The position numbers and the translations under genes are program-made. Below, piece after piece: positions 7,539 through 42,860 of a DNA stretch of 64,000 bases. Origin of the DNA: a phage. Where the stretch lies: assembly GCA_025812035.1 (NCBI GenBank), contig GCA_025812035.1_4719.1; one strand, 5' to 3'. The notes under the pieces are model-generated. The model was not told the DNA's origin and ran no database searches. It was given only the letters and a program-made list of their open reading frames with translations. Each line of letters begins with the position of its first letter. Position 1 is the stretch's first letter.

Positions 7539-8045
7539 TTACTCGCTGATAACCTCAACGGAATTGGGATCAGCGATCATCGCACGGTCAGTAGAACAAT
7601 TGAAGAAGACCATGCCGACACCATCGCCGTTCGAGTTCAGGGTTGAACTTACGTAAGACAGGGTTGGTTTATTCATGCGGTAGAAGCGTTCGCTGGTAGC
7701 GGTATTGAACCCCAGATCAACGTAGTCTTTCACCGTGGTATACAGCTGCGTGGATTCGAAGACGGTTACCGGAGAGTCAACGGTAAATTGACTACCTTCA
7801 TCCACAACCAGAACCTTATCGTTCCAGATTTCAGTGGTTGAAAACTTCGGTTTCCAATGTTCGAATTCCTGGGTTGCACCCCAGCAAGAATACACAGCAA
7901 GATTGCTGTTCTTCTCAACAGGTTTCAAACCCACCAGTTGTGTCAGGTCTTTATCCAGGTTCGGTAAGCCTTCCAGCGTAGCACACCCGCCCAGAGAAAG
8001 CACCATCAACATACCAAGAACGATCGCGCAAAGTTTCTTCATCAT
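7539..8045 (-). CDS. putative lipoprotein
   Basis: N-terminal MMKKLCAIVLGMLMVLSLGGC gives a signal peptide plus lipobox-like LGGC. Confidence 0.5.
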   Translation of the reverse strand: MMKKLCAIVLGMLMVLSLGGCATLEGLPNLDKDLTQLVGLKPVEKNSNLAVYSCWGATQEFEHWKPKFSTTEIWNDKVLVVDEGSQFTVDSPVTVFESTQLYTTVKDYVDLGFNTATSERFYRMNKPTLSYVSSTLNSNGDGVGMVFFNCSTDRAMIADPNSVEVISE

Positions 8046-12711: not shown

Positions 12712-14466
12712 TTATGCTGCTACGTATCCAGGCCAACGTTCTCTTGGCCAGTTTGTTGCACCCTGTCCGACGGTGTCTTTACCAGAAATGACGTTACTTA
12801 CATCCCATCCACTCAGATCCTGATTGAATGCGGTGTTCTCGCGCATCATGAGATCGATCTTACGTAGTGAGTGGGTATTCCAACCAGATATGTCTTGGTT
12901 GAATGCTTTATTGTAGGCAAACATGTTAGACACGTTCTGTAATTTTGACGTGTTCCAACCACTGATGTCGCTATTGAACGACGTGCTTGAGAACATGCTG
13001 CTCGCATCAACAAGATTGTCGGTTTTCCAATTAACCACTTTATCGCCGTCAAATGCATTGCTGCTGCTGAACATAAAACTCATATTGCTAGCTTTGGACA
13101 CATCCCATTTATCTAACCCTTTACCGACGAACTCATTACATGCCGAGAACATCCAGCTCATATCGGTAACCCGACTCACGTTCCATTTGCTGAAGTCAAG
13201 GTTAAGTTTCTGACACCCTAAGAAGGTCTTATACATGTTGGTGATGCGACTAACATCCCACTCTTGGATGTTAGGGTCGTTAAGCGTCGTTAAGTAGTTG
13301 AACAATGTCGCTAACGACGTCCATTTCTCTGGAATCCGGTTTGGTACCGTACGAAGCGATGCAAGGTTGTTGGTTGACGGAGAGCAGAACATACCGTTAT
13401 CCCAATTTACGATTTCCGTAATTTTGGACCCTTTGATCGTCTGAGTGGTATTACCATCTTTCACTATACCCGTAGCAACGATGGTATATTCACCGGTGCC
13501 TGCATAATCGTGGGCGTAGGCACCGTTACTTGAGGTCTCCGTTACTTTATTCCCATCACCCCAATCGATATTAACTTTATCCCACCCACTTAGGTTGAAC
13601 TGTACTTTGCCTCCGGTAGCTTTTAGGATGTATTTACCTCCATTGTCGGTAAAATAGCAGACAACCATTGAACCGTACAGATTACCTATCCGCCAATCAT
13701 CCTTTTCTGTCACTGCGATTTGCGCTAAGCCACGCTGTACGAAGAGTACTGTGCGGTTCTCGTCAGTCTGTAATGTGGCTAATGCTTGGGCCTTATCGTC
13801 CTCGCTAATTTCATTAGCGCTCACTAAAACGCTTAACATTCTTTCGAAGTATTCGATGGGTAATTGACGTCCTACAGACTTATCAACCGACGGTTCAGCA
13901 AGATCGCCCAACGCTGCAGTGGTGGCCAGCATCAACGAACCCTTGGTCATATCTGTTTCTTGTAGGTAGTGCAGTCCTGTAATCTGGTACGCTTGAATAA
14001 TCGTAATCAGGTTCAGCGTATCGTTAACGACCTGTACTTGTAAATGTCCAGACCATACGTAGCTGCTTTCGGCAATTGGTAGTTCGACCGACTGGATACC
14101 TGATGTTTCAAAGGTGATCTTCTTGTTAAGATCGGTTTCCAGGAAATCAACAGCGAGGTCAAAATTTATACCGTACTTCTCAGCGATAGAATCCACGATG
14201 TTTCTGAAAGCAACGTCATTATTTACGATGAAACGTAATGGGATTCCTGCAAACGCTCTAGCAATGTCTCGACGAACATACGTGAGCGACTGCTCGAAGA
14301 AATAGGGGCTACCATCTCGCGGTTTAATGGTCACCTGACATACTTCGGGATATTCAGCTGGGATTAACGACACGAATTCAACATCGGATTCTTTCAATGA
14401 AAGCATATTCTTCCGGTTTACTAATGCCAGAAGATCGGCTTTCCAACCAGGATAAACTGTAGACAT
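12712..14466 (-). CDS. tail fibre-like protein with PKD-like segment and DUF285-type repeats
   Basis: start revised to ATG at 14466 (GGAGTG upstream; MSTVYPGWKADLLALVN aligns with paralog N-termini); IDWGDGNKVT...YAHDYAGTGEYTI is PKD-like; C-terminal repeats of type FNQDISGWNTS..M..MF are DUF285/BspA-like. Confidence 0.6.
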   Translation of the reverse strand: MSTVYPGWKADLLALVNRKNMLSLKESDVEFVSLIPAEYPEVCQVTIKPRDGSPYFFEQSLTYVRRDIARAFAGIPLRFIVNNDVAFRNIVDSIAEKYGINFDLAVDFLETDLNKKITFETSGIQSVELPIAESSYVWSGHLQVQVVNDTLNLITIIQAYQITGLHYLQETDMTKGSLMLATTAALGDLAEPSVDKSVGRQLPIEYFERMLSVLVSANEISEDDKAQALATLQTDENRTVLFVQRGLAQIAVTEKDDWRIGNLYGSMVVCYFTDNGGKYILKATGGKVQFNLSGWDKVNIDWGDGNKVTETSSNGAYAHDYAGTGEYTIVATGIVKDGNTTQTIKGSKITEIVNWDNGMFCSPSTNNLASLRTVPNRIPEKWTSLATLFNYLTTLNDPNIQEWDVSRITNMYKTFLGCQKLNLDFSKWNVSRVTDMSWMFSACNEFVGKGLDKWDVSKASNMSFMFSSSNAFDGDKVVNWKTDNLVDASSMFSSTSFNSDISGWNTSKLQNVSNMFAYNKAFNQDISGWNTHSLRKIDLMMRENTAFNQDLSGWDVSNVISGKDTVGQGATNWPRERWPGYVAA

Positions 14467-14618
14467 AAGCACTCCAATCATGGGGCGGTAACCGCACCCA
14501 ACGGTTAAATTGTCGATTATGGTCGTTGCTGATAAGACGACCATAACCAACGATGTTTAATATGTAGTATATTGATATCATGACGTTATGGGGATCTAAG
14601 TCATACCATGGAGACGGC

Positions 14619-14672
14619 GAAAAAAAAAAGAAAATAGGAAAACGGTGTTCATCCTTTTAGGGATGAACACCG
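14619..14672 (-). terminator. rho-independent terminator (12-bp stem, long U tract)
   Basis: inverted repeat CGGTGTTCATCC/GGATGAACACCG at 14643-14672, followed in minus sense by a T-rich run including ten consecutive T (plus-strand A10 at 14620-14629). Confidence 0.7.
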
Positions 14673-14691
14673 CGTACCATTTGTAAGACGA

Positions 14692-15300
14692 TTAACGAGG
14701 AATCAGATCGTTAAGCTCTTCTTCTTCGATAACAAAGAAGCTGTTCTGGTTGTCTAAATCTGATAACAGGACTTGCCCAACAGTGAAGCAAGTTCCACCC
14801 TTCTTAGGCATCCATACCGGCTCATTCGTTACCTTATCAGGATACCATTTGAAACGGTTGGTATCTAAGAAGAACGCAGCTTTGTTCTCCTTGTCGGTAG
14901 AACGATAGCTAACCAGCGCTGGCCACTCAATCCAGGTATTTGTACATGGTACATGTAAAGGATACCATGCGCGCCAGCGCTTACCAGGACGTTTCGGATC
15001 CTCCCAATATTCAGCGGTTAGCACGGCGTTCTTATATTGTTTCTGTACCAGCATCTCAAGAACAGATTCATTACCGATTGGTAAACGCACCAACTCTCTT
15101 TCGACGTGTGATGAATCTAAAGTCACTTCAGCCATATAAAGAGATTTAGGTAATCCAGCCTGTTTTGTGGGTGGTATTACGACACCGGTAACCAACGGTC
15201 TGCTCGGTTTACGTTTCTGTTCTTTCCGATGCGTGTAAAGGAATAACCCTACAGCTACGACAACAAGTATAATAAACAACACTATCTTAATCCAGCTCAT
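14692..15300 (-). CDS. hypothetical membrane-anchored protein
   Basis: 202 codons; N-terminal hydrophobic anchor IVLFIILVVVAVGLFLY. Confidence 0.45.
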   Translation of the reverse strand: MSWIKIVLFIILVVVAVGLFLYTHRKEQKRKPSRPLVTGVVIPPTKQAGLPKSLYMAEVTLDSSHVERELVRLPIGNESVLEMLVQKQYKNAVLTAEYWEDPKRPGKRWRAWYPLHVPCTNTWIEWPALVSYRSTDKENKAAFFLDTNRFKWYPDKVTNEPVWMPKKGGTCFTVGQVLLSDLDNQNSFFVIEEEELNDLIPR

Positions 15301-16046
15301 TCGTCAATATCTCCTTCTACAAACAGAGTCAATTTGATTTCAGGGTCATAGAACATGGTAATCACACCATCTTGCTCTACTGAACGTTGCGCTGTCCATA
15401 TTAACTGTTCATCCCGAATATCAAATTTATGCCGTTCGTCGCTGACCACAGCTTCCGCATCAACGTAATGGTAAACATCACCAAGAGGATTCTCAATCCA
15501 GCCACGCACCATCAAACGTTCTTTTTGTTTACGTGTGAAGAAGCGATACGGATCTTCGCACGTGCACCATACGTCTCCGCTCTCATTAACCAGCTCATCG
15601 TAAACTTTAGAAAGTTCGTCAGGCACAGGAATCAAAATGTTATCCTGATAGCTCGACCAGAAACGACGTACATCTTGGATTAAATCGTCGCCTTGCAGTT
15701 TAGTTACCGTGTTGCTATGGTCGATCTGAGCAGTATCTATATCAAGACGGGTAAACGGAAGAGCGTCTAGGTTTGCCGCCACGATCTCGATGTCGTCATG
15801 GTGAACATGAACCCACCCGTCAAACCATCGGTACCCGTCAGCTTGATATAACGTTGTATGATATCTGACAACATTGATGTCTTCGAACGAGTCCAATAAA
15901 GCTTTAGCTGCTAGAAGCGGCGAAAAGTTCTTTGATTGTCCTGGCTTACGTATTTCTTCTTTGATGAACAATTTACCAAGAATCGGATGTTCGATAACAA
16001 AACCACAGGAAAGCATGATGCTTCCTTGATAACGTGCTTCTTGCAT
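15297..16046 (-). CDS. hypothetical protein
   Basis: 249 codons; 4-nt overlap with the downstream gene suggests translational coupling. Confidence 0.45.
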   Translation of the reverse strand: MQEARYQGSIMLSCGFVIEHPILGKLFIKEEIRKPGQSKNFSPLLAAKALLDSFEDINVVRYHTTLYQADGYRWFDGWVHVHHDDIEIVAANLDALPFTRLDIDTAQIDHSNTVTKLQGDDLIQDVRRFWSSYQDNILIPVPDELSKVYDELVNESGDVWCTCEDPYRFFTRKQKERLMVRGWIENPLGDVYHYVDAEAVVSDERHKFDIRDEQLIWTAQRSVEQDGVITMFYDPEIKLTLFVEGDIDE

Positions 16047-16165
16047 TTTCTATTCCTCAAACAAAAGATTGTCTTTTAACGCGACATGATTACAAGTACA
16101 CAAGTTACTGAATTTCTGTAAAAGTTAATTTTCGTAAAATAAAAGAAAACGTGTCCGTGTTTCCT

Positions 16166-16202
16166 GGTTCTTCCCCTCCACAGCTTCAGGAAGAGAAGAA
16201 CC
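16166..16202 (-). terminator. imperfect 14-bp stem-loop followed by U-rich tract
   Basis: GGTTCTTCCCCTCC / GGAAGAGAAGAACC with two mismatches; minus-sense downstream GUUUUCUUUUAUUUUAC. Confidence 0.4.
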
Positions 16203-16222
16203 GTTTGCTAAGTTGTTATGTA

Positions 16223-16471
16223 TTAAAACGCATTGATTGGGTTGCTCAACGCTTTATCACGGATTTGAATCGCTGCCAGCATTGCTTTCTGGTACGAATC
16301 GTAAGCATCAACAGAAACCGTCAAATCAACCAATTTCTCTAATACGGATTCAGCCGCTTTTACGCGGACGCGGAACTTGGTGATTGCGTTATCTTTGTTA
16401 CGATAAACCGTGATATGGTGCAGCGGTTGAACTTTGGTTTTAACAGATTTAGTTGCTTTGATCGTTTTCAT
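16223..16471 (-). CDS. hypothetical protein
   Basis: 82-codon ORF. Confidence 0.4.
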   Translation of the reverse strand: MKTIKATKSVKTKVQPLHHITVYRNKDNAITKFRVRVKAAESVLEKLVDLTVSVDAYDSYQKAMLAAIQIRDKALSNPINAF

Positions 16472-16524
16472 GATGATTTCCTTCTTTATTAGGATGATTA
16501 CATTTAGTCAGTTTAACAGCATAA

Positions 16525-16551
16525 ACCCTTCCCGCGTAAGGCAGGAAGGGT
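16525..16551 (-). promoter_or_regulatory. intergenic stem-loop (ACCCTTCC/GGAAGGGT) followed in the transcript by TTATGCTGTTAAAC
   Basis: inverted repeat read directly; loop contains CGTAAGG, as in the 2368 family. Confidence 0.4.
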
Positions 16552-16564
16552 ATACGGATTTGTT

Positions 16565-17062
16565 TTACGCGTGTCGTCGTTTACCAAAGAAAATATGATT
16601 GTCTACCACGGTGATATTGGTAGCGTGTTTTTTGAAGTGTTTAGGGCGAAGATGTTTCGCGTTAAAGAATACGGCTCCTCGTGTTGGATCGGCTTTACGG
16701 TAAGCAACAATGTCGTTATTGCGCAATGTTGCGACCTCTCGTGCTATTGCTCTTGCTCGCTCAAAAGCAGCATGATCACGTATGACGATTCGTTGTTGTC
16801 TTGCCCAGGGGAATTGACCTCTTTGCAGTACGACGTCTCTGACGTTCGTAGGGAATCGGTAGTCCATAGATCGATTATGTATTAAAAACGCCACGGAGTA
16901 TTGCCCTCTTACAGATTCGCCCCTGGCTTCCATATACACAGCACATGCGACGATCTCTTTCCGGCAATCGATTCTAGGTCCTGCGTTCACCGATGCTTGA
17001 CTGAACGGTGCGATAAGCAACATAACAAGCCCTAAAACCAACGTGTGTAAAATACCTTTCAT
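16565..17062 (-). CDS. SleB-like cell wall hydrolase with signal peptide
   Basis: N-terminal signal MKGILHTLVLGLVMLLIAPFSQA; core CAVYMEARGESVRGQYSVAFLIHNR...FPTNVRDVVLQRGQFPW matches the Hydrolase_2/SleB pattern. Confidence 0.55.
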   Translation of the reverse strand: MKGILHTLVLGLVMLLIAPFSQASVNAGPRIDCRKEIVACAVYMEARGESVRGQYSVAFLIHNRSMDYRFPTNVRDVVLQRGQFPWARQQRIVIRDHAAFERARAIAREVATLRNNDIVAYRKADPTRGAVFFNAKHLRPKHFKKHATNITVVDNHIFFGKRRHA

Positions 17063-17315
17063 CTTAATAACCTCACGATAAGGTGCTGTCCACTGGCGTC
17101 ATGATAACGCATCCCGTCTATCGGGTTGTTCTATTCAGCGGGCAGCAGGTTAGCGTCAGATGTTTGCCCGACATCCACGACAGAAATAAATGGTACTGAA
17201 AATGCGGTCTCCTCTGGTTTGGCAATAAACATAACGTTGGATAACAGAACCCATTTTCCGCATCCAACGCGGTAAAGGCGTACATCGTTTGAATTCATAT
17301 AGTTTCTCAAAGATG

Positions 17316-17684
17316 TTAACCTCTACCGTCAAGCCATAAGTTGTACTTATCCCGAACGTATGGCTCACGATAAATACGTCGATAGACTTGATGTGGTATA
17401 AACTTGCAATGTACGAGTTCGTCGCTTAATTTCTGACGTCGTTCCATACCGTTGTGTATACGGCGTATCTCCCGGATATTAAAGGTTGTTTTATTCAAGA
17501 GAATAGACATAATGGCAGATCGATGATCTAGATCAAAGATTGACATCAGGCTTCGTATCTCACGTAAAACAACTTCTCTATCGACAAGGATGCGGTTATT
17601 GAACTTAAGATTCTCGGCGATACCCATAACCTTCACCTTCGACACGTCGACATGCCGGTAAAAATAAACACCAGCTTGTTGCAC
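17316..17684 (-). CDS. hypothetical protein
   Basis: 122-codon ORF; N-terminus overlaps the upstream gene, so the true start may be internal. Confidence 0.3.
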   Translation of the reverse strand: MQQAGVYFYRHVDVSKVKVMGIAENLKFNNRILVDREVVLREIRSLMSIFDLDHRSAIMSILLNKTTFNIREIRRIHNGMERRQKLSDELVHCKFIPHQVYRRIYREPYVRDKYNLWLDGRG

Positions 17685-17976
17685 TGAGGATCGTCATTGC
17701 GATGATATCTGCGACATCACTTAGTCGAGCACCAGCTTGCCACATGACGAGTATAAAAAGAACGTATGCGAATCCATACCAGACAAACCGTTTGATGTTA
17801 CGTGTCGACCAAGTACAAATATACAAAAGGGGAAGTTGTCCTATAACACTAACGATGTTTCGGATAACATAATAGGCGCGTTCCGTCGTTGCCTCGAAAT
17901 CGATGTTCGTTGCAGAAATCCCAATCAATATAAAAGTGATAAAGCAATAGATTTTTGCGTACGTTTTTAAACTCAT
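17605..17976 (-). CDS. hypothetical membrane protein (holin-like candidate)
   Basis: 123 codons with several hydrophobic helices; near the cell wall hydrolase gene. Confidence 0.4.
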   Translation of the reverse strand: MSLKTYAKIYCFITFILIGISATNIDFEATTERAYYVIRNIVSVIGQLPLLYICTWSTRNIKRFVWYGFAYVLFILVMWQAGARLSDVADIIAMTILSATSWCLFLPACRRVEGEGYGYRRES

Positions 17977-17991
17977 AACTTTTCCCGTTCG

Positions 17992-18225
17992 TTATTTGCG
18001 TTTCCCTATACTCCTCAACAATGTGACGATAACGAATACCGCTGTCATCAAGAAGAGGAACCATAACCCTACGTTAATTCGGGCGGCGGGTTCATCTACC
18101 ATGAAGAACATCGTTCCACAAAACCCAATAACCATCCAGGTTAAGACCATCCCTGTTAATCCCCGTAGTAGCATATGCCCCATCATGAACTCCTTCTTAC
18201 TTTTTCTGATAAAGCGACGATTCAA
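17992..18225 (-). CDS. small membrane protein
   Basis: 77 codons, two hydrophobic helices. Confidence 0.4.
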   Translation of the reverse strand: MNRRFIRKSKKEFMMGHMLLRGLTGMVLTWMVIGFCGTMFFMVDEPAARINVGLWFLFLMTAVFVIVTLLRSIGKRK

Positions 18226-18359
18226 GTTTTAGAAACATCGCTAACGCGAATGCGATTATTATCGCACGTATCCACATACCTCCTTGACAACTGTTGTACA
18301 ACATAAAGACCAGAGCGATGCCGCCCATATGCAGGCGGCACTTATCGAACAGTGTGGGT

Positions 18360-18587
18360 TTATACATAGGAAATTAATCGTTGAATGATTTTTACTTTGC
18401 CTTTACCTGGGCCTTTCTTGCGACGATTCAACAGACGGATACGGTTTCCAATTACGGAATCGCCATCATAATCAGCACGTAACTGTGGTGGGAGAGCAAG
18501 ATGTTCGCGATTGACACCCGGGTTGTTATAAAAACGATTGAAACTTAAAAGATGGTTAGTTGGAATCATTGTATTGTCCTTATTCAA
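18360..18587 (-). CDS. small basic protein with KKGPGKGK motif
   Basis: 75 codons; ...NRIRLLNRRKKGPGKGKVK...; motif shared with ORFs at 36428-36631 and 36854-37000. Confidence 0.4.
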   Translation of the reverse strand: MNKDNTMIPTNHLLSFNRFYNNPGVNREHLALPPQLRADYDGDSVIGNRIRLLNRRKKGPGKGKVKIIQRLISYV

Positions 18588-18944
18588 TTATTTACCCAGA
18601 TAGAGATATTCAGCGCCCTGAACAACGCCGGTTGTTGGATCAACCAGTACGCGAACCCGTGCGTAGGTCTTGAAAGAGGGATTGAAAACTTCGAAGTCAG
18701 CCACTTTCAATTTCACGCTAGGGTTGATAGGGTTCTTAACACCCGGAAGTTCTTTCGGTAACCCGAAATCGACTCCATCTTCTTCAAGGTCTGCTGGCGT
18801 CATGTTCTCCATGGCCATGTAGACCGCTTTTGCTTTATCGTAAACTTCTGGGCTATCCAGCAACCCAGCCTGTGCTGAACCGACAACACCACCGAACAGA
18901 ATAGCAACAGCAACAAACAATTTCGCTAACGTTTTCATGATCAT
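18588..18944 (-). CDS. secreted hypothetical protein
   Basis: signal-peptide-like N-terminus MIMKTLAKLFVAVAILFGGVVGSAQA. Confidence 0.5.
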   Translation of the reverse strand: MIMKTLAKLFVAVAILFGGVVGSAQAGLLDSPEVYDKAKAVYMAMENMTPADLEEDGVDFGLPKELPGVKNPINPSVKLKVADFEVFNPSFKTYARVRVLVDPTTGVVQGAEYLYLGK

Positions 18945-18973
18945 CTCCTTAAGAGTAAATGGTACAATACTTA

Positions 18974-19396
18974 TTAACGTACGGCAGCAACGCTACCAGC
19001 ACATGCCTGAATATCATCTGTATTTACGATGATGGTTTCGTTAAACGCACGAATACGTGCACGACGTGCTTCTTTAAGGCTAGCAATTGCGTTAGCAGCT
19101 TGATCTGTATTCGCAAGGCTAATAACCGGGATCAAACGCATATCGGGACTGCAGATATTCAATGCTTGGTACACACGTCCGTTAATTCCTACGGTATCAG
19201 ACATCGGATAGTGCGCACGACATTGAAATTGACCCATGACAACAAGCGAACGATCTGAGATACCAATCTGATAACGACCATCTTCACTGTAGGCGTAGCA
19301 GTTTTGACCACGAGCCATCCAGTTAGCTTGTGCTTGTGTGCTAACAAAAGCCAGGGTGGTGACGATAGCAAATACGATATTTTTGAACAGTTTCAT
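18974..19396 (-). CDS. secreted hypothetical protein
   Basis: signal-peptide-like N-terminus MKLFKNIVFAIVTTLAFVSTQAQA. Confidence 0.5.
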   Translation of the reverse strand: MKLFKNIVFAIVTTLAFVSTQAQANWMARGQNCYAYSEDGRYQIGISDRSLVVMGQFQCRAHYPMSDTVGINGRVYQALNICSPDMRLIPVISLANTDQAANAIASLKEARRARIRAFNETIIVNTDDIQACAGSVAAVR

Positions 19397-19453
19397 GATA
19401 GAGATCCTTATTGAAATAAAATCGGTATAAAGCCCCCCATTAGGGGGACCTGA

Positions 19454-19771
19454 TTAGTTTGCACGTAAGAAATGACCCAGAACCGTTACGATTGGGAACA
19501 GTCCTGTGACGGTATTATCACCCGAAAACATCATGTTTGAGCCGTTAACGGTGATGAAGCGGATGTCGGTTGCGGACCCATCAATAGCGACAAAACGCAT
19601 TGAGTTCGGTGGAAGATCCTCAACAACATCCTCGAGGTATTCGCGATTTTCAAAGGCTTCTTTAACACGACGCATGAAACGAATCAAGGTTCCTTCCGCG
19701 TCGGCTTCCAAATGACCTAAGATATCGCGATTGTTGCGAATAGCGAATACAGCCATTTTAAACATACACAT
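19454..19771 (-). CDS. hypothetical protein
   Basis: 105-codon ORF with AAGAGGA upstream. Confidence 0.45.
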   Translation of the reverse strand: MCMFKMAVFAIRNNRDILGHLEADAEGTLIRFMRRVKEAFENREYLEDVVEDLPPNSMRFVAIDGSATDIRFITVNGSNMMFSGDNTVTGLFPIVTVLGHFLRAN

Positions 19772-19835
19772 CTTGACATCCTCTTATATTGGATTGATTG
19801 CTAATAATTCAAGGTGAAGCTAATTACTGCATTGC

Positions 19836-19872
19836 TTCACCTAGGTAATATAGCCGTGAAAATTAATGCATT
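19836..19872. promoter_or_regulatory. 37-nt conserved intergenic element, copy A
   Basis: TTCACCTAGGTAATATAGCCGTGAAAATTAATGCATT; shares an exact 17-mer GTAATATAGCCGTGAAA and flanking TCAC/TGCATT with the element at 49420-49456. Confidence 0.4.
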
Positions 19873-19879
19873 AATCCAT

Positions 19880-20833
19880 TCACGCCTTTGCTATATAGGG
19901 TTGGATCTCATTGATACGTTTAACCACAACCTCAGGGAAAAGTTTGAGTATTTCATCGGGTGGTATTGCACCTTCTGTCCAACGATAGCGTTCAACCTTC
20001 TCGATGCGTGGACTCCCTCCGACGTCAGCGATACGAAAGATACAGGCAATGCCTAAATCAAAACACACGCTGTAAATATCTTCCGTGCCTCCTTTATCAG
20101 CAAGTATTTTCGCAAAATGTTCGTTATCAGGAAGAATGGCTAAATTACGTATACGCCAAACATTATTACCCATTTCTTCAAGGATTGGGTATGTTAAAGT
20201 GTGTCCGTGTCGTGTTAACCATCGATGATTTTCGAGGTAGAAGTCCTTATCCCCTGGCCGGTAACCCAATATCACTCTGGTGTAGAAGAGATTGGGCATG
20301 TCGAGCAGTTCTTGAATCGTTGGACCGGTATACTCCCAGAGACAGATTTGTTTGCGGTCTATATCGTAATCTGTGACGTTACTCACCTCCCAACTTATCG
20401 TAAGTTCGTCAACAACATGCCAACCGAAAGTGTGTTCGCAGCCAAGCAGATTAACAATCGCTGATATCTCATGCTTGTCAAATACCCCCAAATTACATGG
20501 TGGCTGCATCGTACGTAATGGTTCCCACAACACACTGTAATCATAAAGCAAATGGCGACATAAACTTTTTGTTAAGGGTGTATGTTCAGTAAACAGTGGA
20601 AGAATCACCGTATCTAACAGTGGACGTAATGGATGGTTGTCAGGCGGTAGAGGAGAAACCAGACGACCTCCTTCTTTAGGGTAATCAAGACCAAACCCGT
20701 AACGCTCCGAAATGAGTGCGATCAGCACTTTTGCTACGCGATTACGTAGCATGCGATGGATATCATCACTGTAACTGAATTTCGGTTTATTTCCGCAAAC
20801 GAAGGTGAAGTATCTAGGTGATAACTTAACCAT
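19880..20833 (-). CDS. hypothetical protein
   Basis: start revised to ATG at 20833 (AAGGAAAA upstream), which removes a 62-nt overlap; 317 aa, no motif recognised. Confidence 0.45.
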   Translation of the reverse strand: MVKLSPRYFTFVCGNKPKFSYSDDIHRMLRNRVAKVLIALISERYGFGLDYPKEGGRLVSPLPPDNHPLRPLLDTVILPLFTEHTPLTKSLCRHLLYDYSVLWEPLRTMQPPCNLGVFDKHEISAIVNLLGCEHTFGWHVVDELTISWEVSNVTDYDIDRKQICLWEYTGPTIQELLDMPNLFYTRVILGYRPGDKDFYLENHRWLTRHGHTLTYPILEEMGNNVWRIRNLAILPDNEHFAKILADKGGTEDIYSVCFDLGIACIFRIADVGGSPRIEKVERYRWTEGAIPPDEILKLFPEVVVKRINEIQPYIAKA

Positions 20834-20843
20834 AATCTTTTCC

Positions 20844-21290
20844 TTAATCCAAATAGTACGTGATGGATAGGTCTTTTCCATTGAATACAATATCCGTACA
20901 GTCATGGATCGTCGGTAATACCATTTTGGCGGCTACCGGAACATACGCCTGCAACTCCATGAAGTTATCCATACGGAATGCACGACGCACCATCAACGGT
21001 GTTAGTGTAAATGTTACGCTGACGTTACCGCTTGGAGTCAAGTGCATTATCGCATGCCCATGATCGCACCAACAATGGTTTTCGATCCATCCAGTGTAAA
21101 TCAGAATATTTTTATCCTCGTCGTAATAAGCAATGCCAGTCTGCTTTAAACGGCTGGTAAATCGAGAGGCTTGCTCATAGCCTGCACGCAACATTCGAGC
21201 AACCAGGCGAGTGTTGTTAGCGATTCGATTCTGTTCGTTGGTTTTTGTGGTTTTGAAAAGTTCGATACGTTCTGCTTTTGTAATTTGCAT
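20844..21290 (-). CDS. hypothetical protein
   Basis: 148-codon ORF. Confidence 0.45.
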   Translation of the reverse strand: MQITKAERIELFKTTKTNEQNRIANNTRLVARMLRAGYEQASRFTSRLKQTGIAYYDEDKNILIYTGWIENHCWCDHGHAIMHLTPSGNVSVTFTLTPLMVRRAFRMDNFMELQAYVPVAAKMVLPTIHDCTDIVFNGKDLSITYYLD

Positions 21291-21295
21291 GATTA

Positions 21296-21709
21296 CTAAC
21301 CTAATGAATTGCGTTTAAATAATTGGATGTATGGGGTACCAAATAAAGGACTGTATGAATGTATTCGGTTCTCCTCTGATTCGTAATACTCGATAGGCCA
21401 CGATATTGGTTTAGGTAAGCGATCTAACGCTTGCAACACGGCGAGTTTAACGCTATTACTTTCGATCGGATACGGAAGTACCGTTGACGAACAGAACACA
21501 TGTGTTCGATGCAAATAAATGAGATGCTGCTGTAGCTTAGACAAACGCCTACGCTTGATTAAGAAACCAGTTACGTGGCAATCGGAGTGATCGTAGTGAT
21601 AACGTGCGCTATCGAAATAAACCTGTTCTCCTCTAACAATGAGATACTTTATCGCTTGCATGAAAGAGTAACGGCGTAATTCTCCATTAGCCAACATGAC
21701 ACGAATCAT
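21296..21709 (-). CDS. hypothetical protein
   Basis: 137-codon ORF. Confidence 0.4.
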   Translation of the reverse strand: MIRVMLANGELRRYSFMQAIKYLIVRGEQVYFDSARYHYDHSDCHVTGFLIKRRRLSKLQQHLIYLHRTHVFCSSTVLPYPIESNSVKLAVLQALDRLPKPISWPIEYYESEENRIHSYSPLFGTPYIQLFKRNSLG

Positions 21710-22308
21710 TACTTAGGCTCCAGAATCGGTCCGAACAACCAGAAAGTCAGACGCTGGTAGATCTGTTCGATGACTGCGGATTCTGTTTGCTCTTCTAGTG
21801 ATTTCCCTTTTTTATGCTGTATTTCTGGCGGGATGTCGCCAGTGTAAACATACCCTGTTGAGAAGTCCCATGCTAGCCGTTTACCGAAAGTGGGTAAGAA
21901 CACCTCTTCGAATCGGAACGCTTTCGAATTCCAATGAAGCAGCTGATCGGATTCAACATGTAAAGCTTTGTTACGTTTGCTTGGCATGTTTCCGAAGTAC
22001 TGAACGATAGCTGATTTCATAACCCGGTCTGCGAAGTCTTTGGCTTCGGCCTCATCGAGGGGAGGCAGGCGATGCGATAGATTCAGCTTGCGTTGTTCAA
22101 CATCAATCTTACGCATCGCTTTAATCAAATCACTAGGAACGATTTTACCCTTATGTCCTTCCTGTCGGTGTATGAAACACCCCTGGAATAACACGCAAAG
22201 TTCTTGAGGTGCGGTACTTTCCATTCGTCCGTAAGCAACGATCACCGAACGGCGACGGTCGATAACTTCGCGGATAAACCGCGGCTCAGTAATACTCACC
22301 ACTGTCAT
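21709..22308 (-). CDS. hypothetical protein
   Basis: 199-codon ORF. Confidence 0.45.
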   Translation of the reverse strand: MTVVSITEPRFIREVIDRRRSVIVAYGRMESTAPQELCVLFQGCFIHRQEGHKGKIVPSDLIKAMRKIDVEQRKLNLSHRLPPLDEAEAKDFADRVMKSAIVQYFGNMPSKRNKALHVESDQLLHWNSKAFRFEEVFLPTFGKRLAWDFSTGYVYTGDIPPEIQHKKGKSLEEQTESAVIEQIYQRLTFWLFGPILEPK

Positions 22309-27132: not shown

Positions 27133-29820
<2,688 letters not shown>

Positions 29821-41630: not shown

Positions 41631-42860
41631 TCACTTCAGAAGCTTAGACGCCGCCATGCTACGTGCCTTCGCAACGTCATACGCATCCATGATCGCGTCG
41701 CCGATAGCGGTATGACGAATCAACGGAATACCCATGTCTGGATACTCTTTGGTGCCTAAGATGGATACTGGTTTGTCTTGATACGCGGCAAGCATCGAAC
41801 GGATATCCTGAACCTGGTTATACCGACAAACTGGCTTAAAGCCTGCTTTACGGAACCAATGCTCTAATTGAGGCCAATCTGTTTCACCGCGAGCAAGATA
41901 ATAGAAGGTATCTTTACCGTAGTATTCGGTCATCTCATCACGGATATTGTTAACAAATGCATTTACTGTAGCAATGGCTTCTTTATAGTCCATCACTCCG
42001 TCATGCTGAAAACAATAGTCGCGCGCTTCCTTCGGTGCTTTGGTTTGCCACCATTCTACCGTGGACTTACTAATATCACCGCCATCAGCGATTTGACCGT
42101 AAACGTCAGGGAAGATATCTATACGTGGGCCGTTAATAACAGATTCTGGATTAGCCAGATCGAAGAACAAGATGCCGATTTCCAGCAATACCCCGTTCTT
42201 TTCTAGACTGAGATTCTCCACATCCAGGCAAAACGCAGGTTTCTCTACCGCTGAAAAATCAAAATATTCTTCGAGACGCGGCGTTGGTTCGGCGGCGAAA
42301 AACGTCTCATGAATGAACTGGGCGAATGTCTTATTCATTGCTACTAAGTCAATGCCCAATTTACTTAGCAGAGGTATAATCGCGTGGTCATTCTGCTGTA
42401 TCACCACCCACTCTCGGCTTTTGATAGAACGACCAATTGAGTAAAAGAGATGAACGATGTCTAACGGTTTGTACGGAGCCTCAAAAGTTGTTCCCTGGAA
42501 CGACTCAGCCAGCGCCTTATGCGTTTCTTCACGATGATTCATCAGTTGGAGAATAGCGCGGCGCAGATAATACCGTAATGTTATCTCGTGAAGGTGTGAT
42601 ATATCTTCCTGAAATAACGTCATGAAACCGTGGTATGTATAATGCTCGCCTCTTTTAATTTCGTCGAAGAGTTCTTTGTTCCCCTTTATTTCTTCTGGTG
42701 TTACCTGTTTGATTTGATCGTGGATAATGTTGAGCAGGTCACTGCCGTGTACCTTAAACAGTTTTTCAACGCTAAAATCGGGTAATGTCGCAATTGCTGC
42801 GTACATTAATGTTTCTGCGGGATTAAGTTCTTTATTGTCAATTGTGATGGTTAAAGCCAT
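41631..42860 (-). CDS. protein with C-terminal DEDDh-type 3'-5' exonuclease-like domain
   Basis: start revised to ATG at 42860 (GAGGT upstream); candidate Exo I FCLDVENLSL and Exo III HTAIGDAIMDAYDV motifs; N-terminal ~200 aa unassigned. Confidence 0.5.
   Translation of the reverse strand: MALTITIDNKELNPAETLMYAAIATLPDFSVEKLFKVHGSDLLNIIHDQIKQVTPEEIKGNKELFDEIKRGEHYTYHGFMTLFQEDISHLHEITLRYYLRRAILQLMNHREETHKALAESFQGTTFEAPYKPLDIVHLFYSIGRSIKSREWVVIQQNDHAIIPLLSKLGIDLVAMNKTFAQFIHETFFAAEPTPRLEEYFDFSAVEKPAFCLDVENLSLEKNGVLLEIGILFFDLANPESVINGPRIDIFPDVYGQIADGGDISKSTVEWWQTKAPKEARDYCFQHDGVMDYKEAIATVNAFVNNIRDEMTEYYGKDTFYYLARGETDWPQLEHWFRKAGFKPVCRYNQVQDIRSMLAAYQDKPVSILGTKEYPDMGIPLIRHTAIGDAIMDAYDVAKARSMAASKLLK

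Follow-up and report, generated by a model that had tools for sequence, protein, structure and literature searches.

The window analyzed here, a stretch of 64,000 nucleotides of phage DNA that shares ~91% identity with Goslar, a nucleus-forming jumbo phage, encodes a SleB-type cell-wall hydrolase that is almost certainly exported through Sec and that lies among other genes whose products are targeted to the envelope. The explanation that we favor, and to which we give slightly less than an even chance, is that these envelope-targeted genes of a Goslar-like jumbo phage of E. coli make up one conserved transcription unit, in which the hydrolase is a second, auxiliary exported lysin. That the cluster forms a lysis system that is both new and self-contained is unlikely. 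Enzymes of this type are already known from many large phages, and the Goslar protein gp098 is already annotated as an endolysin.

Lysis by nucleus-forming jumbo phages has been worked out only recently, in phiKZ, and the phiKZ cassette is unrecognizable in the Goslar-like coliphages. The candidate lysis parts of the Goslar-like phages of E. coli are two wall hydrolases, a conserved 2-TMD protein, and a new 56-aa membrane gene, with no spanin. Secreted SleB-like enzymes are encoded in about a thousand of the phages sequenced so far, among them the model phage T5. Their automated label "endolysin" is putative, and it is doubtful for the T5-like phages because these have a different, well-known endolysin.

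Organization of the gene cluster

The features of the region are given below with their Goslar counterparts; a slash in a leader sequence marks the predicted cleavage site.

14642-14673, minus strand: intrinsic terminator (13-bp stem and T-run) that divides the cluster from the downstream tail genes and closes the unit
14692-15300, minus strand: type II membrane protein, 202 aa, gp094, final gene in the unit (TM scan; omega 0.07; ORFan)
16223-16471, minus strand: small basic soluble protein, 82 aa, net charge +8, gp097 (omega 0.06-0.20)
16565-17062, minus strand: SleB-type (Hydrolase_2) cell-wall hydrolase, 165 aa, gp098 (Pfam, PHROG, PDB, AF2/Foldseek)
17125-17340, minus strand: almost invariant block of ~200 nt that holds a 55-aa ORF at 17131-17298 (alignment of seven Goslar-like genomes)
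17316-17627, minus strand: soluble basic protein, 103 aa, gp099 (no TMD; omega 0.10-0.13; no Pfam or PHROG match)
17605-17976, minus strand: accessory multi-pass membrane protein, 123 aa, gp100 (TM scan, 2-4 hydrophobic segments)
17992-18186, minus strand: 2-TMD protein, ~63-64 aa, gp101 (TM scan; Shine-Dalgarno sequence GAAGGAG; 7/7 genomes)
18197-18367, minus strand: small membrane protein, 56 aa, unannotated in the Goslar RefSeq entry (open in 7/7 genomes; omega 0.19)
18360-18569, minus strand: small cationic protein, 69 aa, net charge +9, gp102 (charge, hydrophobic moment, conservation)
18588-18944, minus strand: secreted protein, 116-118 aa, gp103 (leader ending GSAQA/G; omega 0.12-0.22; no lipobox Cys)
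18974-19396, minus strand: secreted protein, 140 aa, gp104 (leader ending TQAQA/N; omega 0.05-0.10; no lipobox Cys)

The hydrolase, membrane, and secreted ORFs named by an earlier note on this DNA are all present and all lie on the minus strand. Its placing of membrane and secreted proteins around the hydrolase is upheld, as 7 of the 12 consecutive genes at 14692-19396 are envelope-targeted compared with 11 of ~98 across the window, which is far above chance (P ~1.5e-5, or ~1e-3 once corrected for window position, in a test that was post hoc). The two secreted proteins that it reported at 18588-19396 are also found, with leaders that end in AQA. The 56-aa membrane ORF (18197-18367), the protein with an N-terminal TMD (14692-15300), and the terminator (14673-14642) did not appear in that note.

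The cluster genes are all under purifying selection when compared with those of relatives (omega 0.05-0.35), and the core genes are syntenic in 7 Goslar-like genomes; Goslar gp096 is missing from the window. In a promoter search sigma-70-like sites were depleted, the only enriched intergenic 8-mers were Shine-Dalgarno and terminator words, and the phiKZ-type early motif TATATTAC showed no enrichment. The almost invariant block lies just upstream of the hydrolase gene and has a dS of 0.05, compared with 0.66-2.9 for its neighbors. It is present in a single copy and is lineage-specific, its sense-strand RNA fold has a z of -2.76, and an Rfam search of the block gave no match. The block is possibly a regulatory or RNA element, or else it may encode a very constrained peptide.

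Fold and active site of the hydrolase

The protein matches the Pfam profile Hydrolase_2 (PF07486) over positions 1-100 of 100 with E=3.7e-16 and 60 bits (cut-off 27), and its PHROG match is PHROG 938, "endolysin". When the AF2 model (pLDDT 88) was compared with the PDB using Foldseek, the sole significant matches were the SleB catalytic domains 4F55 and 4FET, with a probability of 1.00. Residue E45 (nt 16930-16928) aligns with the glutamate of the SleB "YGE" motif, which is YME here, and E45, R64, and H156 are invariant in a 50-sequence family alignment. The Pfam, PHROG, and Foldseek results together with the invariant E45 bear out the SleB-like hydrolase that had been proposed at 16565-17062. 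Against the NCBIfam SleB equivalog model TIGR02869 the score was 42.5 bits, below the cut-off of 236.5, and the match covered model positions 88-199 only. The gene has an omega of 0.11-0.37 and a GAGG Shine-Dalgarno sequence ~8 nt 5' of its ATG, and the mature protein (142 aa) has a net charge of +15 and two Cys residues (C33 and C40).

Bacillus SleB requires muramic-delta-lactam, which E. coli murein does not contain. Activity of the phage hydrolase on vegetative E. coli murein is therefore an assumption, under which the enzyme would be muralytic in this host. The only experimental information found in the literature on the hydrolase or any phage homolog is an unpublished remark that the SleB-like protein of Certrevirus CB7 (CB7_83) is toxic when expressed in E. 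coli.

The leader and its occurrence in the SleB-like family

Heuristic analysis of the n-, h-, and c-regions and of the -3/-1 site places a signal peptide at residues 1-23 (nt 17062-16994), with predicted cleavage after residue 23 (SQA/S). The leader, MKGILHTLVLGLVMLLIAPFSQA followed by SV, consists of K2, an 18-residue Leu-rich hydrophobic core, and Pro at -5 ahead of the S-Q-A site. This c-region is kept in 7/7 Goslar-like genomes, and SQA/S recurs in T5.083. The leader had been described as cleavable-looking, and the heuristic check, which gave all three regions as well as SQA/S, agrees; cleavage of the signal peptide is thus predicted. Given so canonical a predicted leader, Sec export of the hydrolase to the periplasm is almost certain, as the earlier note had argued in preference to release by a holin, and an enzyme exported in this way can get to the wall without a holin hole.

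An N-terminal hydrophobic or lipoprotein leader is found in 135 of the 151 nearest family cluster representatives (~89%), and leader-bearing homologs are present in ~980 phage records, including T5.083, rV5, Certrevirus, and Sugarlandvirus. AxA-type leader ends occur independently in Arash, CR9, UPEC06, DevonBitter, and T5.083. Across this whole family the signal peptide is ancestral, and signal peptides of this kind are common in phages; the leader does not mark a special lysis strategy of the Goslar-like phage. A trait carried by most of the closest family representatives is not unusual, and the description of the module as non-canonical on this ground is weakened.

In the large virulent phages of enterobacteria that carry the family (T5, rV5, Certrevirus, Sugarlandvirus), the SleB-like gene lies away from the known holin/endolysin pair. 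T5-like and Certrevirus phages have, in addition to the SleB-like enzyme, a separate endolysin or second wall hydrolase. In T5 the lys (T5.040) and holin (T5.041) genes are adjacent at 19.9-21.0 kb and T5.083 is at 42.3 kb. The lysozyme and holin of AKFV33 are ORF41/42 and its SleB is ORF81, and, besides a signal peptide-bearing SleB, Certrevirus CB7 encodes another wall hydrolase, with Rz/Rz1 at a different position. In CB7 and in UPEC06 the SleB-like gene is overlapped by a candidate class II holin with 2 TMDs. Early promoters and tRNA genes surround T5.083, while the CR9 and UPEC06 homologs adjoin helicase and phosphatase genes. A knock-down screen in T5 (CRISPRi-ART) classed T5.083 as "Not Fit", but the known endolysin T5.040 was also "Not Fit", so the screen cannot tell "auxiliary" from "redundant".

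Small membrane proteins

The Shine-Dalgarno sequence of the 2-TMD gene lies just ahead of an ATG-ATG (18186/18183), which indicates a product of ~63-64 aa and not 77 aa. In the 64-aa form the TMDs span residues ~8-29 and 39-57, with a loop (DEPAAR) between them and a tail (RSIGKRK) after them, and the predicted topology is N-in/C-in with a +4 C-terminal tail, which is the topology of class II holins and pinholins. The gene is present in 7/7 genomes with an omega of 0.08-0.20 and lies ~0.9 kb upstream of the hydrolase gene, with 2-4 genes between them that include a variable slot. No match was found in Pfam, PHROGs, or NCBIfam, there is no similarity to the 2-TMD protein of UPEC06, and a homolog search with the 64-aa protein returned Goslar-like phages only. 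By its topology the protein is the best local holin candidate, and any role that it is given below is putative. A dual-start motif in the gene (MMGHM) was considered and dropped for lack of conservation in relatives.

The 123-aa membrane protein is encoded by a dispensable accessory insertion. Its gene occupies the variable slot, which holds 0-2 such genes, and is absent from 3 of 7 related genomes: the segment ~17503-18012 is missing in L012 and L013, and L019 has no called gene at this position. Genome L018 has a 125-aa homolog (46% aa identity) in the slot and L020 has two membrane genes. Pfam matches to VanZ (the 123-aa protein) and P53 were below threshold and were ignored.

The 56-aa membrane gene is real. 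Its ATG overlaps the stop region of the upstream gene, it is called as a gene in L018-L020, and the comparison with L018 shows 18 synonymous changes and the omega given above, with stops in the other frames. The 202-aa protein has an N-terminal TMD and a periplasmic domain of ~180 aa; a homolog search returned Goslar-like phages only, and the gene has neither an embedded lipobox ORF nor an o-spanin partner.

None of the cluster membrane proteins matched the holin or spanin models of Pfam, PHROGs, or NCBIfam. Both of the multi-helix membrane proteins of the earlier note exist, but the one drawn at 17992-18225 is really ~64 aa long and starts at 18186. Of the suggestion that they could be holin-like, the part that holds is a conserved 2-TMD protein with class II topology; there is no holin family match, and the 123-aa protein is accessory. 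Further holin-like proteins are encoded at 29509-29820 of the window and by Goslar gp004.

Secreted, cationic, and soluble neighbors

Homolog searches returned Goslar-like phages only for the 118-aa secreted protein, and the 140-aa secreted protein is likewise an ORFan outside of these phages. The latter has four Cys residues in its mature part, and its AF2 model (pLDDT 48) is unusable. The gene for the 82-aa basic protein lies directly downstream of the hydrolase gene.

The 69-aa cationic protein has an invariant C-terminal RLLNRRKKGPGKGKVKIIQRLISYV. It passes a crude disruptin screen that uses the criteria of small size (<80 aa) and strong cationic charge (bioRxiv 10.1101/515445), but its maximum hydrophobic moment is 0.46 compared with 0.89 for LL-37, and Gly-Pro-Gly interrupts its basic stretch. 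The protein is a weak candidate for a disruptin-like protein resembling phiKT gp28.

Searches for other lysis genes in Goslar and the window

Goslar gp024 is an endolysin of canonical soluble type (GH108 and PG_binding_3; PHROG 315, "endolysin") that is encoded outside of the region covered by the window; as no gp024 homolog lies within the window, we infer its presence in this phage from Goslar. The gp024 gene is located among virion structural genes, and a TM scan of its neighborhood found no membrane-protein neighbors, so there is no lysis cassette at that position.

A spanin and lipobox scan of the window and of Goslar (except ~2.1 kb inside the tail-fiber gene gp090) found nothing near the cluster, and no lipobox ORF is present in any frame at 14000-20000. 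The sole lipoprotein in the window (7539-8042) follows a tail-fiber assembly gene and has no C-terminal TMD. The cluster is not spanin-like because it has no lipobox, and the proposal that its membrane proteins could be spanin-like fails, as no lipoprotein signal is found in, or embedded in, any cluster gene.

The phiKZ lysis cassette consists of gp141/141.1/142/143/144 (Manohar et al. 2026, PMC12894885). Searches of Goslar and the window with phiKZ gp141-144 (tblastn) found no homologs. From this phiKZ region only the RuvC protein gp140 was matched, which corresponds to Goslar gp010.

Proposed role of the hydrolase

In the mechanism that we favor, a single-domain SleB-type enzyme (Glu45) would be made with a cleavable Sec signal peptide and exported, and signal peptidase I would free it in the periplasm, where it would build up in a restrained state. 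De-energization of the inner membrane would then let it join in the breakdown of the wall, with the conserved 64-aa 2-TMD protein, a candidate membrane-depolarizing (pin)holin, as the presumed trigger. Neither of the two secreted proteins is a spanin, and the phage can dispense with the accessory 123-aa membrane protein. Lys44 of the Oenococcus phage fOg44 and SAR endolysins are restrained until the inner membrane is de-energized, and the restraint and triggering of the periplasmic hydrolase are proposed by analogy with these enzymes. The auxiliary role is suggested by family analogy and by the canonical endolysin gp024 of Goslar. Since T5, T5-like, and Certrevirus phages carry a second endolysin or hydrolase and gp024 lies elsewhere in Goslar, the cluster is not established as "the" lysis module. 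The lysis module of the earlier note is therefore kept in part: the exported hydrolase and the conserved 2-TMD protein fit it, and the separate endolysins of T5-like phages, Certrevirus, and Goslar and the lack of a spanin do not.

It is unlikely, though less so than the other alternatives considered, that the cluster is the primary and self-contained lysis cassette, of a non-canonical kind, in which a Sec-exported endolysin acts with a pinholin-like 2-TMD trigger and a spanin substitute (for example, a disruptin such as the 69-aa gp102-like protein), leaving gp024 as a virion or accessory enzyme. The lack of detectable homologs of the phiKZ gp141-144 cassette and of a spanin pair in Goslar and the window would agree with this, as would the position of gp024 among virion structural genes with no membrane-protein neighbor. 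Core gene order is kept in 7 genomes, the hydrolase is accompanied by two conserved small membrane proteins and by a cationic (+9) protein that passes the crude disruptin screen, and a 2-TMD gene adjoins the SleB-like gene in Certrevirus and UPEC06. However, the T5, T5-like, and Certrevirus phages that were checked have another endolysin or wall hydrolase, the 2-TMD protein has no holin family match and is separated from the hydrolase by 2-4 genes including the variable slot, and the cationic protein combines a low amphipathic moment (0.46 compared with 0.89 for LL-37) with the Gly-Pro-Gly break. A role apart from terminal lysis is doubtful; examples would be local murein remodeling in infected cells that makes room for swelling of the cell around the nucleus of the phage, superinfection exclusion, or disturbance of host envelope processes. 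E. coli itself has soluble periplasmic transglycosylases, and such an enzyme is not necessarily lytic. Lineage-specific, strongly constrained secreted ORFans abound in the cluster, its hot spot for accessory membrane genes is a typical feature of loci for host interaction, the T5 knock-down screen shows T5.083 to be dispensable, and the T5, CR9, and UPEC06 genes lie in the early-promoter, tRNA, helicase, and phosphatase gene contexts described above. The true lysis genes of T5 are also classed in the early region, however, so that gene position says little; the reported toxicity of CB7_83 on expression fits a lytic enzyme, and no positive evidence was found for any specific alternative role. 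We hold with equally little conviction a broader proposal, that the leader-bearing SleB-like hydrolases of T5-like, rV5-like, Goslar-like, and other large virulent phages form a pan-lineage, pre-lysis class of periplasmic murein-remodeling factors and are not endolysins, acting in Goslar-like phages with the co-conserved secreted and membrane ORFans and perhaps controlled by the invariant 200-nt element.

It is improbable that the N-terminal segment stays uncleaved as a SAR domain that tethers an inactive enzyme until a pinholin collapses the proton motive force, as for P1 Lyz and phage 21 R. Signal-peptide predictors often label SAR domains as signal peptides, the 2-TMD protein is close by, and some relatives have a weakly basic or uncharged n-region (MQGIL..., MHGIL...). 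The hydrolase does not, however, have the weakly hydrophobic, G/A/S-rich TMD without a cleavage site that defines SAR endolysins. Its core is 73% L/I/V/F/M and 20% G/A/S/T, which indicates a strong anchor or a signal peptide, the two classes not being separated by this measure, compared with 40-60% G/A/S/T in two SAR domains. As the ordinary E. coli signal peptides of OmpA (60%) and MalE (53%) are also rich in G/A/S/T, this fraction cannot separate SAR domains from signal peptides, and the case against a SAR domain therefore rests on the cleavage site and the hydrophobicity of the core. The canonical c-region is kept in 7/7 genomes with SQA/S again in T5.083, and in the established SAR model so hydrophobic a helix is not expected to leave the bilayer spontaneously.

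Comparison with known systems

The auxiliary exported lysin that we favor resembles several known systems in part. Sec-dependent, holin-independent export is likewise found for fOg44 Lys44 and for the SAR endolysin and pinholin systems (P1 Lyz, phage 21 R/S21, and phiKMV), and there too a small membrane protein is presumed to be the trigger. The catalytic folds of these enzymes differ from that of the hydrolase, whose leader looks cleavable and not SAR-like and for which trigger and restraint are a proposal. phiKZ belongs to the nucleus-forming jumbo phage family shared with Goslar and illustrates that ordinary multigene lysis is possible in such phages (PMC12894885), but its five cassette genes have no detectable homolog in Goslar or the window, and for the type of endolysin, the class of holin, and the spanins the counterparts either differ or were not found.

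The Bacillus spore-cortex lytic transglycosylase SleB (4F55, 4FET) has the catalytic-domain fold and the catalytic Glu motif in common with the phage hydrolase, which, unlike SleB, has no N-terminal peptidoglycan-binding domain. T5.083, the rV5 "SleB", Certrevirus CB7_83 and CR9 gp095, the Sugarlandvirus "endolysin", and gp62 of Salmonella phage Arash each have a single Hydrolase_2 domain (145-190 aa) and, like the hydrolase studied here, are basic in their mature form and start with a Sec-type leader. These homologs are only 28-45% identical to it, and their genes lie among replication or tRNA genes, whereas the gene in the window is in a cluster for exported proteins upstream of tail genes. 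Some of the relatives adjoin a small 2-TMD protein, but that of the window is unrelated in sequence and its gene does not overlap that of the hydrolase. The orthologue is Goslar gp098 (YP_009820783; "endolysin" or "putative cell wall hydrolase"), which has 91% amino-acid identity to the hydrolase and the same length, leader, and neighbors, and differs from it by sequence drift only.

The hydrolase and its leader

Escherichia phage vB_EcoM_Goslar, a nucleus-forming jumbo phage of 237 kb that infects E. coli, was the only megablast match for window 14000-22000 (90.8% identity, 92% of the query), and its counterpart of the window lies at roughly 93.5-157.5 kb. The minus strand carries every gene of the region. 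The ORFs named in an earlier note on this DNA are all real, and the cluster includes the following:

14692-15300 (-), gp094-like protein with an N-terminal TMD
16565-17062 (-), SleB-type cell wall hydrolase, 165 aa
17605-17976 (-), 123-aa protein, two to four hydrophobic segments
17992-18186 (-), protein with two TMDs (2-TMD protein)
18197-18367 (-), 56-aa membrane ORF
18360-18569 (-), cationic 69-aa protein, gp102-like
18588-18944 (-), secreted protein SP118
18974-19396 (-), secreted protein SP140

The hydrolase is orthologous to Goslar gp098, annotated as 'putative cell wall hydrolase' in GenBank and 'endolysin' in RefSeq, so that the main subject of the finding has an annotation in a published relative already. 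It matches the whole Pfam Hydrolase_2 profile (E=3.7e-16, 60 bits vs a cut-off of 27) and PHROG 938 'endolysin'. Its only PDB-sequence matches (phmmer) are the SleB catalytic domains 4F55 and 4FET, with the motif AVYMEARGE paired with AVYGESRGE of SleB, and the same two entries are the only significant Foldseek matches in the PDB (probability 1.00, target-normalised TM 0.73) of an AlphaFold model built from a 50-sequence alignment (mean pLDDT 88, catalytic core >90). Residues E45, R64, and H156 are invariant in the family alignment (n=50 sequences). The hydrolase belongs to a known, widely distributed family whose function is predicted from sequence. The SleB equivalog identity was rejected, as the score of 42.5 bits falls short of the 236.5-bit cut-off and the match is confined to the model's catalytic half; unlike SleB, the hydrolase has no peptidoglycan-binding domain.

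The N-terminus of the hydrolase (MKGILHTLVLGLVMLLIAPFSQA/SVNAG, where the slash marks the predicted cleavage site) combines a core rich in leucine (73% L/I/V/F/M and 20% G/A/S/T) with Pro at -5 and the site S-Q-A. Sequence analysis thus bears out the cleavable-looking signal peptide described earlier, and the leader looks like a cleavable Sec signal peptide.

Leader-bearing relatives in other phages

The hydrolase family was found by tblastn in 980 phage records, mostly from Escherichia, Salmonella, and Klebsiella phages, and including rV5, T5, Sugarlandvirus, Certrevirus, and a PA5oct-like Pseudomonas jumbo phage. The alignments start past query residue 17-38, and every homologue extracted brings its own leader.

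Leader ends of SleB-like proteins from other phages
Arash: ...PVLA/S
CR9: ...TALA/K
UPEC06: ...VTYA/K
DevonBitter: ...HAQA/K
T5.083: ...SSQA/S

When 1.84 billion cluster representatives were searched exhaustively, 3336 matched the hydrolase, and among the nearest 151 of these a hydrophobic N-terminal leader is present in 130 and a lipoprotein-type leader in 5. Since leaders are widespread among the nearest representatives, export is the ancestral condition of the single-domain subfamily; judged by these sequences, the signal peptide is not special within its family. Published work has recorded this pattern before: the SleB-like CB7_83 of Certrevirus CB7 also has a signal peptide, has homologues across the Vequintavirinae, was toxic on expression in E. 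coli ('data not shown'), and its gene overlaps that of a class II holin candidate of 65 aa with two TMDs (PMC7344957). An equivalent 70-aa two-TMD ORF overlaps the SleB-like gene of UPEC06, and no overlapping two-TMD ORF was found at the SleB-like gene of CR9 or DevonBitter.

Organization and conservation of the cluster

Both small membrane proteins of the earlier note have hydrophobic segments or TMDs, but the span given for the second needed correction. A Shine-Dalgarno sequence (GAAGGAG) precedes ATG-ATG at 18186/18183, so the 2-TMD product has ~64 aa rather than the 77 aa of the TTG form. The two secreted proteins stand as described, with leaders that both end in AQA/ and a lipobox in neither. 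Seven of 12 consecutive genes are envelope-targeted vs 11 of ~98 in the window (P ~1.5e-5, post hoc), and P is ~1e-3 in this post hoc test once window position is allowed for. A terminator with a 13-bp stem (14673-14642) ends the unit ahead of the tail genes. Sigma-70-like promoter matches are depleted in window 14000-20500 (5 vs 14.6 +/- 3.4 expected), in line with phage-encoded RNA polymerases transcribing the region.

The window was compared with six relatives: Goslar, the close metagenomic contigs L012 and L013, and the more divergent L018-L020. The core order is common to all seven genomes: SP140, SP118, the cationic 69-aa protein, the 56-aa membrane ORF, the 2-TMD protein, a variable slot, a gp099-like gene, a 55-aa ORF, the hydrolase, gp097-like, (gp096), gp095-like and the N-TMD gp094-like genes, and the tail genes.

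Omega values vs L018
2-TMD protein: 0.08
SP140: 0.10
Hydrolase: 0.11
56-aa ORF: 0.19 (18 synonymous changes; other frames carry stops)

The 2-TMD gene is the most constrained small gene of the cluster. The 56-aa membrane ORF (window 18197-18367(-), Goslar 112140-112310) is missing from both Goslar annotations (RefSeq and GenBank); its substitution pattern identifies it as a real gene under purifying selection. The variable slot holds the 123-aa gene: the segment ~17503-18012 is absent in L012 and L013, no gene is called in L019, L018 carries a 46%-identical version, and L020 carries both an L018-type version and an unrelated membrane gene of 114 aa. By this pattern the 123-aa gene occupies an accessory hot spot and cannot be essential for lysis in the lineage, which weakens the earlier suggestion that its product could be holin- or spanin-like. 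A second indel site (window ~16046-16223 vs Goslar 109585-110085) corresponds to gp096 (166 aa), present in Goslar, L013, and L018-L020 and absent in the window and L012.

A block of ~200 nt near the hydrolase (within 17125-17340(-), mainly 17335-17135), spanning the last gp099-like codons through the 55-aa ORF, is near-invariant in all seven genomes while flanking genes differ by 10-40% (dS 0.05 vs 0.66-2.9 in neighbours). It is single-copy and lineage-specific, has no match in Rfam, and its sense-strand fold has z=-2.76, with 1 of 200 shuffles as stable; its invariance rules out a covariation test. It could represent an RNA that serves the hydrolase as leader or regulator, or else the trace left by a recombination sweep in the recent past.

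Holin, spanin, and disruptin candidates

No cluster membrane protein matches the holin or spanin models of Pfam, PHROGs, or NCBIfam. The 2-TMD protein has class II topology (short N-terminus, loop DEPAAR, tail RSIGKRK), is confined to Goslar-like phages, and shows no similarity to the UPEC06 two-TMD candidate. In a six-frame lipobox scan, no gene of the cluster encoded a lipoprotein or had one embedded in it. The sole clear window lipoprotein (7539-8042(-), 167 aa, LGGC/A; Goslar gp088) lies directly after the tail-fibre assembly gene, is of outer-membrane type (MKKLCAIVLGMLMVLSLGGC/A), and belongs to PHROG 9559 of unknown function. It was rejected as a spanin, as it has neither an i-spanin partner nor a C-terminal TMD. 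Of the earlier description 'holin- or spanin-like', the holin part thus keeps the topology of the 2-TMD protein in its favour and the spanin part is unsupported. T5 Llp is a receptor-blocking lipoprotein, and the position of the 7539-8042 gene resembles that of such lipoproteins, making its product a possible superinfection-exclusion factor by analogy.

The gp102-like 69-aa protein carries a strong positive charge (net +9), and its C-terminus is invariant. It passes a crude screen for disruptins, cationic peptides that substitute for spanins (shorter than 80 aa, net charge +4 or higher; bioRxiv 10.1101/515445), yet its amphipathic moment is low, so it is a weak lead only.

Outside the cluster, a gene at 29509-29820(-) (Goslar gp122) that overlaps the start of the NAD-dependent DNA ligase gene encodes a protein of 94-103 aa with holin-like topology, in which two TMDs precede an exceptionally charged C-terminus. 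At the left end of the Goslar genome (L006:818-2528), gp002-gp004 are three adjacent membrane proteins, with N-terminal TMDs in gp002 and gp003.

Possible role of the hydrolase in lysis

Comparative evidence suggests that the hydrolase is probably not the sole endolysin. The established lysis genes of T5, lys (T5.040) next to holin (T5.041), occupy 19.9-21.0 kb, and T5.083 lies at 42.3 kb amid early promoters and tRNA genes; in T5-like AKFV33 the lysozyme and holin are ORF41/42 and SleB is ORF81. Certrevirus genomes encode another wall hydrolase besides, their Rz/Rz1 genes lie elsewhere, and 'two lytic proteins' are described for a Phapecoctavirus. In Goslar, gp024 (211 aa, no leader or TMD; Glyco_hydro_108, 2e-19; PG_binding_3, 8e-20; PHROG 315 'endolysin') is the soluble, modular type of endolysin that is classic for Gram-negative phages, and gp204 is a giant virion protein with a lysozyme domain. 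As gp024 has no membrane-protein neighbour, its holin would have to be encoded elsewhere. RefSeq calls T5.083 (T5 42290-42739) 'endolysin', the established T5 endolysin being T5.040; this label derives from the PHROG/Hydrolase_2 family name and is probably misleading for T5-like phages. In a T5 CRISPRi-ART screen the holin was 'Fit' and lys and T5.083 were both 'Not Fit', scores that suit redundancy or incomplete knock-down alike and decide nothing.

The observation of the earlier note is confirmed and refined, and its interpretation as a possible non-canonical lysis module is partly borne out. The strong form of that interpretation, that the cluster is a complete primary lysis cassette, is unlikely. 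A non-lytic periplasmic role for the hydrolase is slightly less likely still. Least probable by some distance is an uncleaved signal-anchor-release (SAR) anchor; the N-terminus is hydrophobic but unlike SAR domains, which are Gly/Ala-rich and uncleaved, although the composition measure alone separates the classes poorly.

These results provide a clear candidate list for unravelling Goslar-type lysis and flag the 'endolysin' label on the SleB-like family as doubtful for T5-like phages.

The lysis cassette of phiKZ is made up of a spanin pair (i-spanin and o-spanin), a class III holin, a regulator, and the endolysin gp144 (PMC12894885). No counterpart of this cassette could be detected in either Goslar or the window, the neighbouring RuvC alone being shared. 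Goslar gp004 (218 aa), in which a large soluble N-terminal domain is followed by a single C-terminal TMD, has the gross topology of the phiKZ class IIIb holin gp142, and gp002-gp004 showed no sequence similarity to phiKZ genes. In the reading preferred here, the hydrolase would very probably be exported by Sec and cleaved after Ala23, and a periplasmic disulfide could then link the two conserved cysteines that shortly precede its catalytic Glu. We lean towards it acting, as in other phage lineages, as a second, holin-independent wall hydrolase. The 2-TMD protein is tentatively the best local trigger candidate, and the hydrolase would be held in check until de-energisation of the inner membrane, like secreted and SAR endolysins.
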